NCBI GenBank assembly: GCA_965214705.1
Contig: CBDCCI010000002.1
Location: 320,001 to 384,000, forward strand
Source: Alphaproteobacteria bacterium
GTDB taxonomy: Bacteria > Pseudomonadota > Alphaproteobacteria > UBA828
Direction: 5' to 3'
Length of the DNA stretch: 64,000 nt
Below the pieces are notes generated by a model, which saw nothing but the letters and a program-made list of their open reading frames with translations, was not told where the DNA came from and made no database searches. Made by a program: the position numbers and the translations under genes. The first letter of the stretch is position 1. Every line of letters starts with the position of its first letter. Positions 1-4,988 of the stretch are shown here, in pieces.

Positions 1-736
1 GCATAACTGATTTCGCGGCGGCAGCATGCACATTAAGACGCTGGGCGAAGCCGTGGCGGCTTATCGGTTGCCCACGGGCGCTGAGAAAGAGGTGATTAAC
101 GTGAACCTCGGGACGGATTACGAGCCAGTTCTGAAGAACGGACTGGGTTTCCTTCCAGAGAGGTAGGATCCGCTCGCGTCGCCCCTTGCCCATCACATGC
201 ACCGTATCCAAGTGCGGGTGCGAGAGGCTATCAATCGTAAGCGACGTCAGTTCAGAGACGCGAAGCGCTGCGGTATAGGCGAGATGAAGCATCGCCCGGT
301 CCCGCACACCGGAAGGTGTGCTGATGTCCGGTGCGTCGACAATCGCCTGGATTTCGTCGCGGTCGAGCCAGTGGGGTAGCGCTTTTTCGCTACGCTTCTC
401 CGGAATGGCGTGCAACCGCCGAGAGAGTTCGAGACATGCGGGCTCTCTGTATTCGAGGTAACGAAAGAACGATTTGATTGCTGTTAGCCGGGCGTTCCTC
501 GTGCGAGCCGTGTTTCCACGCTCTTTTTCCAGGTAGTCCAAGAAGTCGAGGATGAGCTCAATTGAGAGTTGCTCGAGTACGATGGAGCTCGGTTGAATGC
601 CGAACCGACCGGCAGCGAACACAGTAAACAGCAGCAGACTGTCGGAGTAGCTGTCTATGGTATTCTGGCTGAGGTGCCGATCGCGTGGCAGGTGCTCGAG
701 AACGAACGCCGTTACATGGGGAGCAATGTAAATCAT
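1..736 (-). CDS. Tyrosine recombinase, RIT element third gene (RitC-like), runs off window edge
   Basis: Manual translation from ATG 736 (ATGA overlap with upstream recombinase stop): MIYIAPHVTAFVLEHLPRDRHLSQNTIDSY...NTARTRNARLTAIKSFFRYL...RDRAMLHLAYTAALRVSEL...VMGKGRRERILPLW; open to position 1, so absent from the ORF track. Confidence 0.9.
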   Translation of the reverse strand, partial: MIYIAPHVTAFVLEHLPRDRHLSQNTIDSYSDSLLLFTVFAAGRFGIQPSSIVLEQLSIELILDFLDYLEKERGNTARTRNARLTAIKSFFRYLEYREPACLELSRRLHAIPEKRSEKALPHWLDRDEIQAIVDAPDISTPSGVRDRAMLHLAYTAALRVSELTSLTIDSLSHPHLDTVHVMGKGRRERILPLWKETQSVLQNWLVIRPEVHVNHLFLSARGQPISRHGFAQRLNVHAAAAKSVM

Positions 737-1599
737 TGTTGCGTCCTCCCCGTCTGTACCCGCTCTGCCTTCTCGGCGATTCGCCGAAGCAGTGGCGGAG
801 TTGCCTTGAGATACCAGTACGTATTGGCCAGGTTGGAGTGGCCGAGGTAGGTAGAGAGAGCCAGCATGTGCGTGCTTGAGTCTTCGTCACTGTCCAGGCT
901 CTCCAGTACCCATACACAGTAGCTGTGCCGCAAATCGTGCAGCCGCGGTCCCGGCTCGCCCGGCTGTCCGCGCAGGCCCAACTGACGAAGAAGCCGCAAA
1001 AATGCACGTGTGGCGGTAGGACCAGCCGGCGGCTTGCCTGTTGCCAGAACAAACAGGTGCTCACCAGGCCCGCCAAGGCGTTTTCTGATCGCGACATACT
1101 CGTCTAGGGCGCGCCATGTGTCTTCGTGAAGCGGCAGGAGTCGGCTCTTGCGGAACTTCGATTCGCGGACGAGTAAGCCGTCTGAGGTGATGTCTGACAG
1201 CTGCAGAGCCAGTGCCTCCGACCTTCGTATGCCCGTCACCGCCATCAGCCCGAACAGGTAATGCCATGTATACGGCGCAATCGGGTCACGAGTGGGCAGG
1301 GACAGAGCAGCGTCCATCACCTGACGAACCTGGGCTCGCGTGAGCAAGTACGGTGACGGCCTGCTTGGGTTTCGCCGGCCCACGACGTCGCGAGGCGGCA
1401 CCTCGTGGCGTGCATCCTCCGCGTGTAGCGAGAGTGCGAAGTTTCGAGCGATCTGCAGCTTGAGCGAAGCCCTGTTCGGGGACGTTCCCTTGGAAGCCAC
1501 CACCACTGCGGCGCAGCGGCTCAGTCGCTGAAGTAACTGGGGGTAGAGTCTTCGACTGGGGTTGAGTCTTCGACGGTTGAAGCGTGAAGTGGTAGCGGG

Positions 1600-1781
1600 T
1601 AGGGCAGACGAGGCCGTCCCTTCAGTGGCGTGCGAGGGCACCCGTTTGGAAGCTTGGCCCGAACCGTGATCGGCTTCTGTCACTGATGGCGCGGGTTCGC
1701 CCGTGACCTCGTTCAAGAGATTGAGACTTCGCCGCGGTTCCTCCCCACCCGCAACGTCAACGGAGTTTGGGAGGGCTCTCG
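1600..1781 (+). ncRNA. Candidate IS110 bridge RNA (boundaries approximate)
   Basis: Contains TTGGAAGC (1646-1653) = left target flank, GGCTT (1672-1676) = reverse complement across the target core, TCAAGAG (1713-1719) = element right end, GGCTCT (1774-1779) = reverse complement across the circle junction. Confidence 0.65.
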
Positions 1782-3206
1782 ATGGCGCGCAAGCGGAGAA
1801 GGAGGCAGCGCCTCAAGGTAGTGCACCCGAATTGCGCCGGGATCGACATCGGCAAGGACCGGCACTTCGTGGCGGTGGATCCGGAGCGAGCCGAGGAACC
1901 GGTGAGGGAGTTCGGCGCGTTCACGCGCGACCTGGATGCGATGGCCGAGTGGCTGAAGTCGTGCGGTGTGACGAAGGTGGCGATGGAGTCGACCTCGGTC
2001 TACTGGATCCCGGTTTACGAGGTCCTGGATCGAGCCGGCTTCGAGGTGATGCTTGTGCCGCCCCGGATGACGAAGCAGATCGGCGGGCGCAAGAGCGATG
2101 TGCTGGACTGCCAGTGGATCTGGCAGCTGATGTCCTACGGCCTTCTGCGCGGCGCCTTCCGGCCGGGCGACGCGATCTGCCCGTTGCGCTCCTTCATGCG
2201 CCAGGCGAAGCAGTTGATCGAGGACCGCTCTCGCTGCGTGCTGCATATGCAGAAGGCGCTGACCCAGATGAACGTGCGTCTGGACTCGGTGATCAGCGAT
2301 ATCATGGGGAAGACGGGTGAGCGCATCCTGCGGGCGATCATCGCCGGCGAGCGCGACCCCGGGCGGCTGGCGTCGCTTCGCGACAGGCGGATCAAGGCCA
2401 GCGCCGACACGATTGCCGCGAGCCTGGAGGGCACTTGGCGCGAGGAGCACCTGTTCGCGCTTGAGCAGGCGATGCAGCGCTACGACTTTCTGGAGCAGCA
2501 GATCGCGGACTGCGAGGCGCGGATCATGGCGGAGGTTGAGCACCTGACCCCGCCGGACGATCCGACGGATGAGGGTACGCCCGAGGACACTCCCAGTGTC
2601 GGATCATCGGGCACGGCGTCGAACGAGACCCCAAGCAGCAGCGGCAGGGCGCTCCGCGGGCAGGATAAGGCCATGGCTATGGCGCTGCATAAGATGATGG
2701 GGGTCGATCTCACCGCAATCCCCACCGTCGGCGTCAACACTGCCCTGGTGATCGCCGCCGAGATCGGTCCTGACTTCTCCGCCTTTCCCTCCGCACAGCA
2801 CTTCAGTTCCTGGCTGGGGCTGGCGCCTGGGACCAGGATCAGCGGCGGCAAACCGTTGCCGGGCCGGGGGCCCAAGGTGGTCAACCGCGTTGGCCAGGCA
2901 CTGCGCATGGCGGCCATGACCGCTCGCACCAGCCAAACCTTCATCGGCGCCAAGCACCGCAGCCGCCTCGCCCGGATGGACACCAGCGTAGCCGTTGTCG
3001 CCACCGCCCGAGAACTCGCCTGCCTGATCTACCTGATGGTGACCCGCGGCCAGCAATATGCCGAGAAGGGGATGGAGGTCTACGAGAGCCGACGCCTGGA
3101 CCGAAAGTTCTCTTCGCTCCGTCGACAGGCCAAGAAGCTCGGCTTCCAACTGGTCGAGATCGACGACGACAACAAAAACACAAATGCCTCTATGTCAACG
3201 GCTTAG
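1782..3206 (+). CDS. IS110-family recombinase/transposase (DEDD RuvC-like + Tnp20 domain)
   Basis: CAGIDIGK, VAMESTSVYW, KSDVLDC (DEDD), IPTVG, SWLGLAPGTRISGG (catalytic Ser); ATG 1782 after GGGAGGG. Confidence 0.95.
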   Translation: MARKRRRRQRLKVVHPNCAGIDIGKDRHFVAVDPERAEEPVREFGAFTRDLDAMAEWLKSCGVTKVAMESTSVYWIPVYEVLDRAGFEVMLVPPRMTKQIGGRKSDVLDCQWIWQLMSYGLLRGAFRPGDAICPLRSFMRQAKQLIEDRSRCVLHMQKALTQMNVRLDSVISDIMGKTGERILRAIIAGERDPGRLASLRDRRIKASADTIAASLEGTWREEHLFALEQAMQRYDFLEQQIADCEARIMAEVEHLTPPDDPTDEGTPEDTPSVGSSGTASNETPSSSGRALRGQDKAMAMALHKMMGVDLTAIPTVGVNTALVIAAEIGPDFSAFPSAQHFSSWLGLAPGTRISGGKPLPGRGPKVVNRVGQALRMAAMTARTSQTFIGAKHRSRLARMDTSVAVVATARELACLIYLMVTRGQQYAEKGMEVYESRRLDRKFSSLRRQAKKLGFQLVEIDDDNKNTNASMSTA

Positions 3207-3368
3207 AGAGAAGTTACTCAAGAGCCCAGTCGATGATTCGGTCGCAGCGTGTCCATTCGTCCCCGAATGCCGTGGCGAACTCGGCGTACTCCCGCAGCAC
3301 CCGCTCGTTGTCCGCAAACTTGTAGCCAAGCTTCCTGTTCAGCTCGACGTAGCGTTCGACGTGGAGGA

Positions 3369-4940
3369 TTAACGACATGCCTCATCTCCTCCAATCCAGG
3401 GTTGTGCAACGTGGAGAAGCATTTCGGTGTCCACCTTGGCGTAGATCGCCGTGGTCTCTCGGAACCGATGGCGAAGCACCGCCCCAACAACGTCCAGCGT
3501 GGCGCCAGAGCGCAGCAGGCTGGTCGCGGCGGAATGGCGAAAGACACGAACGCCCCCCGCGCCGGGGGGTTTGACCTCGGCGCGGTCGAGCGCATCGCGC
3601 GCGATTAGCGATACCATCTGGCCGTCCCGGAACGGTCGATGTGGCGCTCGCGTCCGGAGGAACACTTTCTCTTCGTCGACCCGGGGACGCGCGGTGAGGA
3701 TGTAGTCCAGCAACGCGTCACCGACATCCTGCGGAAGGGGCAGAGCGGCCTCGATTGCCGACTTGCTACGGACACGAAGAGAGGCGTTCTTCCAATCGAT
3801 GTCTGACAGTTTCAGATTCGAGACGTCCCGTGCCCGGAGGCCGAGCCTGCCAAGAAGGAGGACAATCGTACGATCACGTCTCCCTTTGCCTGTCGTTGTG
3901 TCGAACGATCCAATCACCCGTTCCATATCGTCGGGCGAGATGTATTTCGGCAATGTCGAGAGCCGCCAATGAGGAACTGTCGGGATTGCTTCGACCAGTT
4001 CTGCGGGGCATTCGCCCTTCGAGGCCAAGTAGCGGATGTACATGCGCACCGCTCCGACCAGATTCTTAGCGTAGGATGGCGAGACGTCCTTTAGGTGATG
4101 TAGGAGAGCACTTCTGATTACTTCAACATCGTATCCGCGCGGATTATCGCCGAGATTCGGCAGCACTCTGGAAAGGTTGTAAATGTGATTCTGAATCGCC
4201 TCGTCTCCGGTGCCGCGGTGTTGACGCAACCACTCTCGGTAGTCATCCAGCCCGTCGTTGGGCTCCTTCCTCGATGGCAACATCTTCGGAGCTAGACCCC
4301 GTTCAGCGAGGAACGTGATGAACGCCCGGGTCTGGTAAGGGACGCGAACAGCGGCACGATGTCCTCTGAATCCAAAGAAGACACCGGGCCGGGCACAATT
4401 GCAGTCGTGGCTGGAGAACCGGTCGAGCACGGACTTGTCGATGTCGGCCAGGGAGATGCGACAATGATGGAGCCAGAAGAGGAAGTGACGGCTCCCGCCG
4501 CGGCAATGTCTGATTGAGCTCGCCGAATGACCCTCCGCCTGCCGCTGCTCCAGGAAGGTGTTCAGCAGGCGGAGGTTGTCATCAATCTCTCCTGGAGTAG
4601 TTATCCGCCCGGTCTCCTCAAGAAACTGAACAAACGTGCGAAGACCGGATACAAAGTGAGGTACCTCCCGGTTGTGAAGCCGATTGAACTTGAACGGCGG
4701 CACCGGACAGGTGCACTCATGCTCAAGAAAGCGGTGCAGGATATCGTCGTCCACCGTGTCCAGAGAGGTACGGCTAAGCTTCAACCAAGCCAGAAAGTGT
4801 TCCGCGGGACCCAGATACCTGAGGATCTTGGCGTGGCCACGTCCCGCCTCAGACAGGTAGGCCGAAAACTGCGGGATGATGCCTGTGAACAGGGCCTGAT
4901 CCGTTCCAGAGCTGACGGTGCATCGGGTGTCTTGTGACAT
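3369..4940 (-). CDS. Tyrosine recombinase, RIT first gene (RitA-like, long form)
   Basis: GLRARDV, VFRHSAATSLLRSG, VLRH...TTAIYAKVD, C-terminal QPWIGG; AGGAGG RBS before ATG 4940; overlaps ritB start. Confidence 0.92.
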   Translation of the reverse strand: MSQDTRCTVSSGTDQALFTGIIPQFSAYLSEAGRGHAKILRYLGPAEHFLAWLKLSRTSLDTVDDDILHRFLEHECTCPVPPFKFNRLHNREVPHFVSGLRTFVQFLEETGRITTPGEIDDNLRLLNTFLEQRQAEGHSASSIRHCRGGSRHFLFWLHHCRISLADIDKSVLDRFSSHDCNCARPGVFFGFRGHRAAVRVPYQTRAFITFLAERGLAPKMLPSRKEPNDGLDDYREWLRQHRGTGDEAIQNHIYNLSRVLPNLGDNPRGYDVEVIRSALLHHLKDVSPSYAKNLVGAVRMYIRYLASKGECPAELVEAIPTVPHWRLSTLPKYISPDDMERVIGSFDTTTGKGRRDRTIVLLLGRLGLRARDVSNLKLSDIDWKNASLRVRSKSAIEAALPLPQDVGDALLDYILTARPRVDEEKVFLRTRAPHRPFRDGQMVSLIARDALDRAEVKPPGAGGVRVFRHSAATSLLRSGATLDVVGAVLRHRFRETTAIYAKVDTEMLLHVAQPWIGGDEACR

Positions 4941-4988
4941 CGTGATGTCCTCCTTTCGTGACAACGCGAAAGAAGCACATCACAAGAC

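Follow-up and report, generated by a model that had tools for sequence, protein, structure and literature searches.

Bridge recombinases are under development as programmable DNA-rearrangement tools, and to our knowledge almost all mechanistic work has been done on IS621 and its near kin. The locus described here raises the question of how a remote member of the IS110 family finds its insertion site. It lies in a window of 64,000 nucleotides from an Alphaproteobacteria bacterium (contig CBDCCI010000002.1, positions 320,001 to 384,000), and all coordinates below are positions in this window. A preliminary description of the window had proposed an IS110 element with four readable bridge-RNA guides. 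Our analysis makes it quite probable that a recently active IS110 element aims itself by an RNA from its 285-nt left end, with one arm being read.

An IS110-family element interrupts a recombinase-in-trio

The insertion sequence occupies 1497-3224 (plus strand), which is 1728 bp when one AG is counted, and the flanks diverge exactly at these positions. The limits of 1495-3226 given earlier had the right location but were not exact. The element begins with CCACC and ends with CAAGAG, and the AG is common to the left flank and the right end. It has no long terminal inverted repeats, its target duplication is the short core only, and its insertion is site-specific, as is usual for the IS110 family. 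The long non-coding end lies upstream of the gene (285 nt vs. 18 nt at the right end), which is the arrangement of the IS110 group and not of IS1111. The 5' part of the left end carries an 18-bp tandem duplication (1540-1574, plus strand) that is absent from the aligned relatives.

The genome contains 10 full-length copies, of which nine are identical and the tenth differs by one change. Among the matches, all printed as 100% identical, eight reached the full 3117 bits and one reached 3112 bits; in the latter, one letter is changed within the ribosome-binding site. One copy is split by an internal duplication. A contig from public run X5 joins 1494 to 3223, skips exactly 1728 bases and keeps TTGGAAG once, and it represents the empty site. 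Both occupied junctions are present in public run X1. The element has been active recently. The contig layout of the public runs also contains uncovered parts and joints from 2011/2014 to 2381 (side 21).

The left target half TTGGA and the shared AG (1490-1496, plus strand) belong to the host flank and lie inside a gene on the minus strand. This gene encodes a tyrosine recombinase (Pfam Phage_integrase), whose 3' part is at 733-1496 and whose 5' part is at 3225-3378; by codon count, the reading frame continues from one part to the other across 3225|1496. It is preceded by the gene of a tyrosine recombinase of 531 aa (3369-4964, minus strand) and followed by another that runs off the window (2-736, minus strand). 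The three genes are adjacent, on the same strand, with overlapping or abutting ends, and all match PF00589, which identifies them as a recombinase-in-trio (RIT). As described earlier, the insertion is thus inside a RIT recombinase, namely the middle gene of the trio, and the empty site in run X5 agrees with this. Nothing here is unusual for the genome as such: an insertion sequence with recent activity has inactivated a gene belonging to another mobile element. The target TTGGA-AG-CCCAG and the circle junction TCAAG-AG-CCACC, as previously reconstructed, both follow from the two junctions. A circle or tandem junction, in which the right end abuts the left end, was not found in this genome.

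The gene of the element (1782-3206, plus strand) encodes a recombinase of 474 aa that matches PF01548 (RuvC-like DEDD domain, N-terminal; residues 19-163, E 4.4e-23) and PF02371 (C-terminal domain with the conserved serine; residues 310-382, E 3.1e-12). It scored 280 bits against NCBIfam NF033542, 'IS110 family RNA-guided transposase', for which the cut-off is 140. The protein is a member of the IS110 family. Alignment to the IS621 structure 8wt6 (E 6.5e-10; the chain numbering of 8wt6 is offset by 2) placed D22, E69 and S354 on IS621 D11, E60 and S241. The last two aspartates were outside the aligned stretch, and D105 and D108 (KSDVLDC) fit the last two catalytic residues by motif only. The protein is long and has an acidic linker, as had been noted; residues 255-305 hold eight D+E, four K+R and 24 S/T/P/G among 51 residues.

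The target guide changes together with the left flank

The motif TTGGAAG recurs in the left end at 1646-1652 (plus strand), in the same sense as the left target plus AG, and would pair with the bottom strand. Nine of the 10 copies in the genome are flanked on the left by [C/G]TTGGAAG and one by TTAGAAG; position -8 is C in seven left flanks and G in three. The genome carries 342 TTGGAAG 7-mers. On both strands of the 64-kb window, TTGGAAG occurs 8 times and the donor motif TCAAGAG 4 times, against 3.4 and 4.7 expected, and each guide 7-mer is expected about 0.01 times by chance on one strand of a 285-nt left end; both exceed chance.

We compared flanks and left ends among the relatives. In 80 paired rows, 69 showed an exact guide-flank match and 6 a match with one mismatch, and 15 distinct guides had an exact cognate flank, all ending in AG. 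Guide matches of at least 7 nt were found in 23 of 24 cognate pairs and in 4.6% of non-cognate pairs. In a column scan of 28 left-end variants, target positions 3-7 tracked five adjacent left-end columns in no fewer than 96% of cases, with all four letters seen. Two copies of relatives were inserted within the guide-coding DNA of another copy. The left-target guide suggested at 1646 is confirmed by the flanks of the genomic copies and by the co-change across 15 guide variants. Covariation of guide and flank, which had been proposed as a check, held for the left flank and failed for the right, where the 10 flanks are unrelated. The element is specific for the left half-site, and its target guide has been naturally reprogrammed.

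Site-specific recombinases commonly read DNA directly, and we considered whether the protein alone recognises TTGGAAG, the copy in the left end being a protein-binding site or an accident. However, proteins that are 91% and 75-77% identical are found with different flank motifs (CTTGAAG, CCCATAG, TTACCAG and TGTTAAG), and each left end carries exactly its own motif at the same place in the fold. The stems described below persist through G-U pairs, which are workable only in RNA of this strand. Recognition by the protein alone is therefore extremely improbable.

The donor guide follows the right end

The motif TCAAGAG (1713-1719, plus strand) reads in the same sense as the element's final 7 nt. 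In the right end (3212-3224, plus strand), the inverted repeat AGTTACT takes up 3212-3218, and the donor arm with AG, TCAAG-AG, takes up 3218-3224. The guide variants TCAAGAG, TCGAGAG, TCGGGAG, ATGAGAG, ATGAAAG and ATAAGAG follow the right end of their own element, with 22 of 24 cognate pairs matching compared with 5.7% of non-cognate pairs. The assignment of a left-donor guide to 1713 therefore stands, both by its recurrence at 3218-3224 and by the variants, and natural reprogramming extends to this guide. The start of the left end, which is the 'right donor' of the circle junction, reads CCACCACCAC (1497-1506, plus strand).

A second co-changing element is the inner inverted repeat AGTAACT (1532-1538, plus strand), whose complement AGTTACT lies at 3212-3218. 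Among 26 distinct elements, 25 carried, at left-end position 34-39 and in four variants, the reverse complement of the 5-mer to the left of the donor arm, compared with 4 of 104 in the non-cognate control. The subterminal repeat is 5-7 bp, and its left copy lies 34-39 nt inside the left end. Subterminal repeats are described as 2-3 bp in the IS110 group and 7-17 bp in IS1111 in the part of PMC11208160 that was available. In IS1111 elements guided by seekRNA, as set out in the portion of Siddiquee 2024 (PMC11187229) used here, the bottom-strand match lies 3' of the top-strand match and the elements have subterminal inverted repeats. Two features are shared: the bottom-strand match of our element is on the 3' strand of the loop, and a co-changing subterminal repeat is present. 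Three features differ from the same account. As in the IS110 type, the non-coding region and RNA precede the gene instead of following it; the repeat is placed asymmetrically, 34-39 nt inside the left end and directly beside the donor arm at the right; and a top-strand match was not found.

Compensatory changes support two RNA domains in the left end

The fold was derived from a scan of all column pairs in 31 sequences, followed by a formal count of compensatory changes. The stems were paired in 94.8% of cells, compared with 86.6% in shuffles and about 40% when the partners were slid, and 16 pairs had changed on both sides, a number that 0 of 500 shuffles reached. The stems keep pairing through G-U pairs. 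The long left end therefore contains a structured RNA region, as suggested before. Folding the single sequence 1497-1790 was no better than its shuffles (z +1.49).

The region is enclosed by outer stem A (1595-1604 with 1743-1752, plus strand), in which 6 of 10 pairs changed on both sides among the 31 sequences; in this element it has one A-C mismatch (1601/1746). The target-binding domain (1612-1659, plus strand) comprises stem B (1612-1616 with 1655-1659; variants GGCC/GGCC, GATC/GATC and GACC/GGTC), a 5' strand of 9 nt that is variable between relatives (1617-1625), hairpin C (1626-1644) and a 3' strand that bears the guide. Hairpin C is invariant, so co-change cannot test it. The donor-binding domain (1661-1740, plus strand) comprises stem E (1661-1667 with 1734-1740), in which 5 of 7 pairs changed on both sides, the weak stem F (1680-1682 with 1722-1724), which changed on one side only, stem G (1684-1686 with 1709-1711), which changed on both sides, and hairpin D (1690-1705). 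In hairpin D the outer three pairs changed on both sides, and the inner three are weakly conserved, with pairing in 65% of alignment cells. Since stem F is weak, the 5' strand of the donor loop is of uncertain length.

Several other pairings were examined. RNAalifold on 17 close relatives recovered stem B and hairpins C and D, missed stem E and added several unsupported pairs. A hairpin CCGA...TCGG (1659-1673) and a CAGTG-CACTG pairing, both seen by eye, are not kept in relatives and were rejected. An alternative partner of GGCCG, 1626-1629 instead of 1655-1659, was also rejected: in the two GATC sequences it pairs only through G-U, and stem B is truly exchanged there.

A search of 1300-3500 against Rfam (E up to 10) returned no matching family. 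The three weak matches, all far below their gathering scores, were msiK (E 0.043; located within the gene, on the opposite strand), Scr3920 and Acido-Lenti-1, and were taken as chance. Neither a sigma-70-like promoter nor a terminator-like site was found in 1400-1850. The sole contig from an RNA library (run X17) represents a relative that is about 94% alike, lacks strand and end information, and may derive from carried-over DNA.

The right-hand guides are not supported

The preliminary description had asked whether the left end folds into two loops that hold four motifs. Two domains were found, with the 1646 guide in the target domain and the 1713 guide in the donor domain, but the motifs at 1672 and 1774 were misplaced. 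The former, GGCTT (1672-1676, plus strand), proposed as the right-target guide, is conserved and belongs to the donor domain (5' strand) rather than to the target loop; it shows no co-change with the right flank and is not a demonstrated guide. The latter, GGCTCT (1774-1779, plus strand), proposed as the right-donor guide, is 3' of the outer stem and outside the whole fold, and shows no co-change with the left-end start. The earlier remark that it overlaps the ribosome-binding region is accurate; it occupies the spacer between GGGAGG (1769-1774) and the ATG at 1782.

These observations bear on the reading of the element as a standard IS621-type four-guide bridge RNA with a new AG core (LTG at 1646, RTG at 1672, LDG at 1713 and RDG at 1774). 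All four motifs do exist at these places. GGCTT is the reverse complement of AAGCC and GGCTCT that of AGAGCC; extended to GGCTTC (1672-1677), the former corresponds to GA-AG-CC and the latter to AG-AG-CC. They resemble the core and 'handshake' positions in the part of PMC11208158 that treats them, and both are kept in the close relative L046. However, the right flanks of the 10 copies begin with TT, AG, AA, CC, AT, CG, GG, TA, CC and TG, so that only 2 of 10 start with CC. Since both motifs are 5-6 nt long and depend on the CC to the right of this copy, they are not above chance given the other copies. The 1672 stretch stays GGCTTC, GGCTTT, GGCTCC or GACTTC in relatives with targets CCCATAG, TTACCAG and TGTTAAG and left ends starting with CG, TA and CT, and distant relatives are without any CT there. 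The 1774 stretch varies freely (GGCTTT, GGCTTC, GGGTTT, GGATGT, GGACTT) and is unrelated to the left-end start. The IS621 order LTG-RTG-LDG-RDG is consequently unsupported in its right-target and right-donor guides, and we regard the four-guide reading as very unlikely.

We also searched for right-hand guides elsewhere. The column scan gave no co-change diagonal for the right flank or the left-end start. A guide complementary to the core plus right target matched in 6 of 24 cognate pairs compared with 7.7% of non-cognate pairs, with the 7-nt matches at scattered places. For the left-end start, 2 of 24 cognate pairs matched, again compared with 7.7%. Ungapped searches for a right-donor guide gave best matches of 4-7 of 8 positions (mostly 5-6) at varying places, and the 5' strand of stem A, 1668-1683 and 1720-1733 showed only partial GC-rich likenesses in some relatives. 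A handshake guide was rejected as too weak: the nucleotide that follows the target guide is identical to the one that starts the left end in all 18 closer relatives (one of them a T/T case), whereas among the 13 distant relatives this holds for only 4. The term 'one-armed' as used here denotes the negative result of ungapped pairing searches in 24-31 related sequences.

Both arms might nevertheless be read, by second guides that are hidden in bulges, non-standard pairs, 1617-1625, 1668-1683, or a pairing of 1532-1538 with the right end. The right-donor guide of IS621 is itself discontinuous, with two bases flipped out and a G-T pair, according to the portion of PMC11208158 on this guide. The variable 5' strand of the target loop and the choice of C or G at position -8 would be compatible with hidden guides, and the GTTAC/GTAAC co-change (25 of 26 elements) might reflect contact between RNA and DNA and not a DNA repeat. 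In two Pseudomonas elements hairpin D contains an 8-nt match to AG plus the right flank; this candidate was rejected because L108 shares the target but lacks the match. No target guide can explain 10 unrelated right flanks, and no RNA stretch follows the left-end start across 24-31 elements. Hidden second guides are thus unlikely, if less so than the four-guide arrangement.

The element resembles IS621 with three differences in layout

Under the reading that we prefer, with one arm read, the region 1595-1752 would form an RNA closed by the outer stem, with two side-by-side domains of the same build, each consisting of a stem, a 5' strand, a hairpin and then the guide-bearing 3' strand. This RNA is probably made and bound by the recombinase, and a circle would be the donor. 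UCAAGAG of the donor domain would pair with the right end at the circle junction, on the same (bottom) strand as is bound by the target guide, and recombination would take place at the shared AG. Simple pairing would then read only one arm of the target and of the donor (5 nt + AG).

The likenesses to IS621 and ISCro4, as far as the available parts of Durrant 2024 (PMC11208160) and Hiraizumi 2024 (PMC11208158) and the structures 8wt6 and 9t56 describe them, are several. The proteins belong to the same family, with D/E/S catalytic residues aligned; a long left end precedes the gene and the right end is short; two RNA domains lie side by side, each built of a stem, guide strands and an inner hairpin; the target is matched by one of them and the ends of the element itself by the other, with the shared dinucleotide included in both pairings; and the target guide is naturally reprogrammed. 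The same sources also mark the differences. The shared dinucleotide is CT in IS621 and AG on the gene's strand here. IS621 has RTG and RDG on the 3' strands of its loops, whereas the guides on those strands, the target guide being on the 3' and not the 5' strand, here read left target and left donor; counterparts of the other two IS621 guides were not found. Target recognition involves 7 nt on one side compared with 11-14 nt on both sides in IS621. The outer stem encloses both domains only here, and the protein has 474 aa compared with 326, with remote similarity. The layout therefore departs from the known one in three ways, namely the AG dinucleotide, guides on the 3' loop strands and no detectable second arm.

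AG is shared by the relatives examined

AG was present at both junctions in all 19 guide variants (the scan required AG) and was also read by eye at the junctions of multi-copy families and in a Caballeronia relative. It was the shared dinucleotide in all relatives examined, and together with the same layout it extends to relatives with 47-48% protein identity on Caballeronia plasmids. A CT core on the gene's strand was not found. The earlier claim of a non-CT core is correct for the transposase-sense strand, but its novelty is qualified, AG being the reverse complement of CT. Because of this, and because the guides have the form and place of the right-hand guides of IS621, the core may be an ordinary CT that lies on the strand opposite the gene. 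The guides (5 nt + AG + 2 nt, on the 3' strand after the hairpin) would then correspond to the IS621 right-hand guides, and AG would be the CT of IS621 seen from the other strand. In a non-exhaustive literature search, neither an AG or turned-round core nor one-armed guides were found described.

We tentatively propose, as a possibility well short of even, that this element and its wide clade (Alpha-, Beta- and Gammaproteobacteria, to 47% protein identity) are natural one-armed bridge recombinases with the CT core turned round. In each loop, only the guide whose IS621 counterpart binds the first strand to be cut and exchanged would be retained, and the other strand would go unread, so that insertion would need just 5 nt plus the core. 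One strand might be transferred and the process completed by replication or repair, and the co-changing subterminal repeat might replace the missing donor guide. The half-match and single-strand models of IS110 transposition, in the portions of bioRxiv 10.64898/2026.08.31.748434 and 10.1101/2025.10.25.684509 available to us, both fit an RNA that reads one arm. In those accounts they are side reactions or pathways of four-guide elements, whereas here one-armed reading would be the normal design.

The element belongs to a broad uncharacterised branch in which natural reprogramming is clear from 15 guide/target pairs. If it is one-armed, it offers a natural setting in which to test recent claims that half-matched substrates, and the transfer of a single strand, are sufficient, and it would show how little pairing a working system needs. 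If not, the missing guides mark a pairing mode that current search rules miss.

Relatives in Pseudomonas (54-58% identity) insert in the REP-like repeat GTGGCGAGGGAG|CTTGCTCCCGC. ISPpu10 of Pseudomonas putida, in the part of bioRxiv 10.64898/2026.03.19.712850 that was available, likewise belongs to the IS110 type, has a bridge RNA and targets REP repeats; it is described with a CT core and a need for both LTG and RTG. In contrast, both junctions carry AG in the Pseudomonas relatives of our element, and no CT can be placed at the left one.

The element and its insertion site

The IS110-family element (1497-3224, + strand) carries one gene, which encodes a recombinase of 474 aa (1782-3206, +) and is preceded by the ribosome-binding site GGGAGG (1769-1774, +). 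The recombinase has both Pfam domains of IS110 recombinases and scores 280 bits against the NCBI model 'IS110 family RNA-guided transposase' (cut-off 140). In addition, it shows remote similarity to the IS621 recombinase of known structure (8wt6, E 6.5e-10), whose D11, E60 and S241 align with its D22, E69 and S354. The IS110 identity given in the preliminary description is borne out by these matches; judged from its sequence, the protein belongs to the family.

The window genome (7.9 Mb, 3 contigs, 67% G+C) holds ten copies of the element; nine are identical, and the tenth differs by one letter. By comparing the ten flanks, we found that the copies part company exactly ahead of CCACC... and past ...CTCAAGAG, which gives an element length of 1728 bp, counting one of the two AG dinucleotides. 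As had been proposed, the insertion lies inside a RIT recombinase: the element splits the middle one of three neighbouring genes for tyrosine recombinases (minus strand), which are arranged as a recombinase-in-trio. A codon count by hand placed the two parts of the split gene in frame across 3225|1496. In contigs of the public sequencing run X5, 1494 is joined to 3223 and exactly 1728 bases are skipped; contigs of run X1 contain both occupied junctions. Therefore, the insertion is recent and polymorphic. The runs holding matching contigs were mostly sponge metagenomes.

Several sequence variants were recorded. One copy (L009, G000:C1:852330-854057) has a single changed letter, giving the ribosome-binding site GGGGGG for GGGAGG. 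In an otherwise identical copy (L010/L013, G000:C3:1872743-1874606), left-end positions 22-157 are duplicated internally in tandem (136 bp); the duplicated stretch takes in the target guide and is joined at a common AGC. Towards its 5' side, the left end of the window element has a tandem duplication of 18 bp (1540-1574) that the aligned relatives lack. Joints in X1 and X5 contigs skip 366-369 bases within the recombinase gene (2011-2381; short side of 21 letters) and may represent a deleted copy or another relative. Finally, related elements are present in the window genome as incomplete, diverged copies (L011, L012 and L014; 75-90% identity), of which L011 has the guide TGTTAAG with a matching flank.

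Target and donor guides

The preliminary description proposed guides for the left target (1646), right target (1672), left donor (1713) and right donor (1774). All four motifs were found in place, as were the reconstructed target and circle-junction sequence. In 128 kb (both strands), TTGGAAG and TCAAGAG had 8 and 4 matches (3.4 and 4.7 expected); by such counts both 7-mers are scarce enough to be informative, unlike the two short reverse-complement motifs. The left flank is (C/G)TTGGAAG in nine of the ten copies, so other insertions share it as predicted, and TTAGAAG in one; the right flanks are unrelated to each other. Given 342 TTGGAAG sites in the window genome, about 3% are occupied.

A pattern scan of loci of relatives, drawn from the same genus and from public genomes, yielded 80 different flank/left-end combinations. 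In 69 combinations the 7-mer at the 1646-1652 place is the same as the final seven letters of the flank, and in 6 there is one mismatch. Larger differences were seen in 5, of which three are tandem copies, one is a truncated contig and one has an unclear end. An exact cognate flank was present for 15 different 7-mers. Each of the 19 guide 7-mers ends in AG, which the scan itself requires; AG was also read by eye, without the scan, at the junctions of multi-copy families. The scan takes the best match within 230 nt (chance about 0.014 per element), and limits in the multi-copy families were fixed independently, from copy divergence points. In a column scan of 28 left-end variants, target positions 3-7 track five consecutive left-end columns in at least 96%, and all four letters are seen in these columns. 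A match of at least 7 nt was present in 23 of 24 cognate pairs vs 4.6% of non-cognate pairs. By this joint change of guide and flank, the proposed left-target guide, TTGGAAG (1646-1652), is real.

In two relatives, a copy is inserted in the guide-coding DNA of another copy. At these loci (L023/L049 and L074) the left flank is ...CACCCGA plus guide and the right flank carries on the interrupted left end, as shown for L049. An X5 contig with a loose end before 1651 belongs to a relative with another target guide, ...CACCCGTAGAGG then AGC..., and the same downstream left end; by its sequence it is a further natural reprogramming.

TCAAGAG (1713-1719) is identical to the seven final letters of the element. 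In relatives, the variants TCGAGAG, TCGGGAG, ATGAGAG, ATGAAAG and ATAAGAG track the right end, and the donor guide matched in 22 of 24 cognate pairs vs 5.7% of non-cognate pairs. By this measure, the left-donor guide is real too.

The proposed second guides

The right-target guide at 1672 did not hold up, because this stretch is nearly constant across relatives with different targets and ends, and no left-end column tracked the right flank among the 28 variants. The CT at this place is missing in more distant relatives. Right flanks matched slightly better in cognate pairs (6/24) than in non-cognate pairs (7.7%), at scattered places. Nor was the right-donor guide at 1774 supported, since its stretch varies freely among relatives and lies outside the fold, and the left-end start gave no diagonal with any left-end columns in the same scan. 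Cognate pairs were no better for the left-end start (2/24 vs 7.7% non-cognate). Ungapped searches used the 8-mer made up of AG and the six opening letters of the left end; its reverse complement matched at 4-7 of 8 letters (mostly 5-6), at shifting places. That the RNA would pair with only one arm each of target and donor (5 nt plus AG) is, in these comparisons, a negative result.

Fold of the RNA

We aligned 31 distinct left-end cores and applied a scan of all column pairs and a formal count. Both support an outer helix, stem A (1595-1604 with 1743-1752, +) and a stem B (1612-1616 with 1655-1659, +), which closes the target domain. This domain holds a variable 9-nt strand, an invariant hairpin C (1626-1644) and U-UUGGAAG-CU (+). 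Stem E (1661-1667 with 1734-1740, +), five of whose seven pairs are exchanged on both sides, closes the donor domain, which holds stem G, hairpin D and U-UCAAGAG-AU (+). Support for hairpin D covers its outer three pairs; the inner three are not well conserved among the aligned cores. Stem F (3 bp, 1680-1682 with 1722-1724, +) shows one-sided changes only and is uncertain. In the formal count, 94.8% of cells were paired vs 86.6% in shuffles and about 40% with partners slid; 16 pairs changed on both sides, a number reached by 0 of 500 shuffles.

The expected two internal loops are therefore found around TTGGAAG (1646) and TCAAGAG (1713), but not around 1672, in the donor domain, or 1774. The window element has an A-C mismatch in stem A (1601/1746); 1601 is G in relatives and in variant contigs of the public runs X8 and X17, which mends it. 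No RNA of the element itself was seen in public runs, where one RNA-library contig came from a relative about 94% alike. The window genome gave no circle junction, and a scan of 1400-1850 no promoter.

Orientation of the core

In IS621, according to PMC11208158 and PMC11208160, each loop has a 5' strand that matches the left arm together with CT. The 3' strand of the loop comes after the inner hairpin and is the complement of CT and the right arm; it thus ends in AG, with two 'handshake' letters after it. The DNA-tracking guides of the window element are also on the 3' strand: they lie directly past the hairpin and end in AG, followed by two letters. On the opposite DNA strand, the target reads CT-TCCAA and the donor CT-CTTGA, the sequences expected to pair with a right-hand guide of IS621. 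From position and form, we think that this is the usual CT core in reversed orientation with respect to the gene, and that the element has no equivalent of IS621's left-hand guides. Of the earlier 'non-CT core', AG does stand on the gene strand at the junctions, but it may be the usual CT read on the opposite strand.

The seekRNA paper (PMC11187229) reports that IS1111-type RNAs have the two matches in reverse order relative to the IS110 type. It also mentions database entries with a one-sided conserved target, for which its authors blame wrong limits; in contrast, the limits of the window element are not in doubt. Half-matched recombination and mainly single-strand insertion are reported for other IS110 elements in two preprints (bioRxiv 10.64898/2026.08.31.748434, 10.1101/2025.10.25.684509), which makes a one-armed design plausible by analogy.

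Relatives and subterminal repeat

The AG core and the same layout are common to relatives in Alphaproteobacteria MAGs, in Gammaproteobacteria, among them Pseudomonas with a REP-like repeat as target, and on Caballeronia plasmids (47-48% protein identity). The IS110 kind is already known; the layout is an apparent variant of it, and no description of it was found in the passages of the literature consulted. The Pseudomonas relatives (L111-L116, L108, L119 and L122; 54-58% identity) all lie in the repeat GTGGCGAGGGAG|CTTGCTCCCGCTGG and have the guide GAGGGAG. Genome OZ253557.1 (G004; L039, L071 and L072-L088) holds about 30 copies of a related element with the guide TGTTAAG, many head to tail with 1707-bp spacing. 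In these arrays the right end of one copy runs straight into the left end of the next (CAAGAG|CCTCC), or the two are separated by an additional AG, a pattern suggestive of recombination of donor with donor. Arrays of IS110 elements in tandem are described in bioRxiv 10.64898/2026.08.14.744561.

The five letters left of the right-end donor arm have their reverse complement at left-end position 34-39 in 25 of 26 distinct elements, vs 4 of 104 non-cognate pairs. Four variants occur (GTTAC/GTAAC, GTTTG/CAAAC, GTTCC/GGAAC and GTTTC/GAAAC). This signal may reflect a repeat in the DNA, a contact between RNA and DNA, or a hairpin formed by a single-stranded circle. In the window element, the subterminal inverted repeat is lopsided (1532-1538 and 3212-3218).
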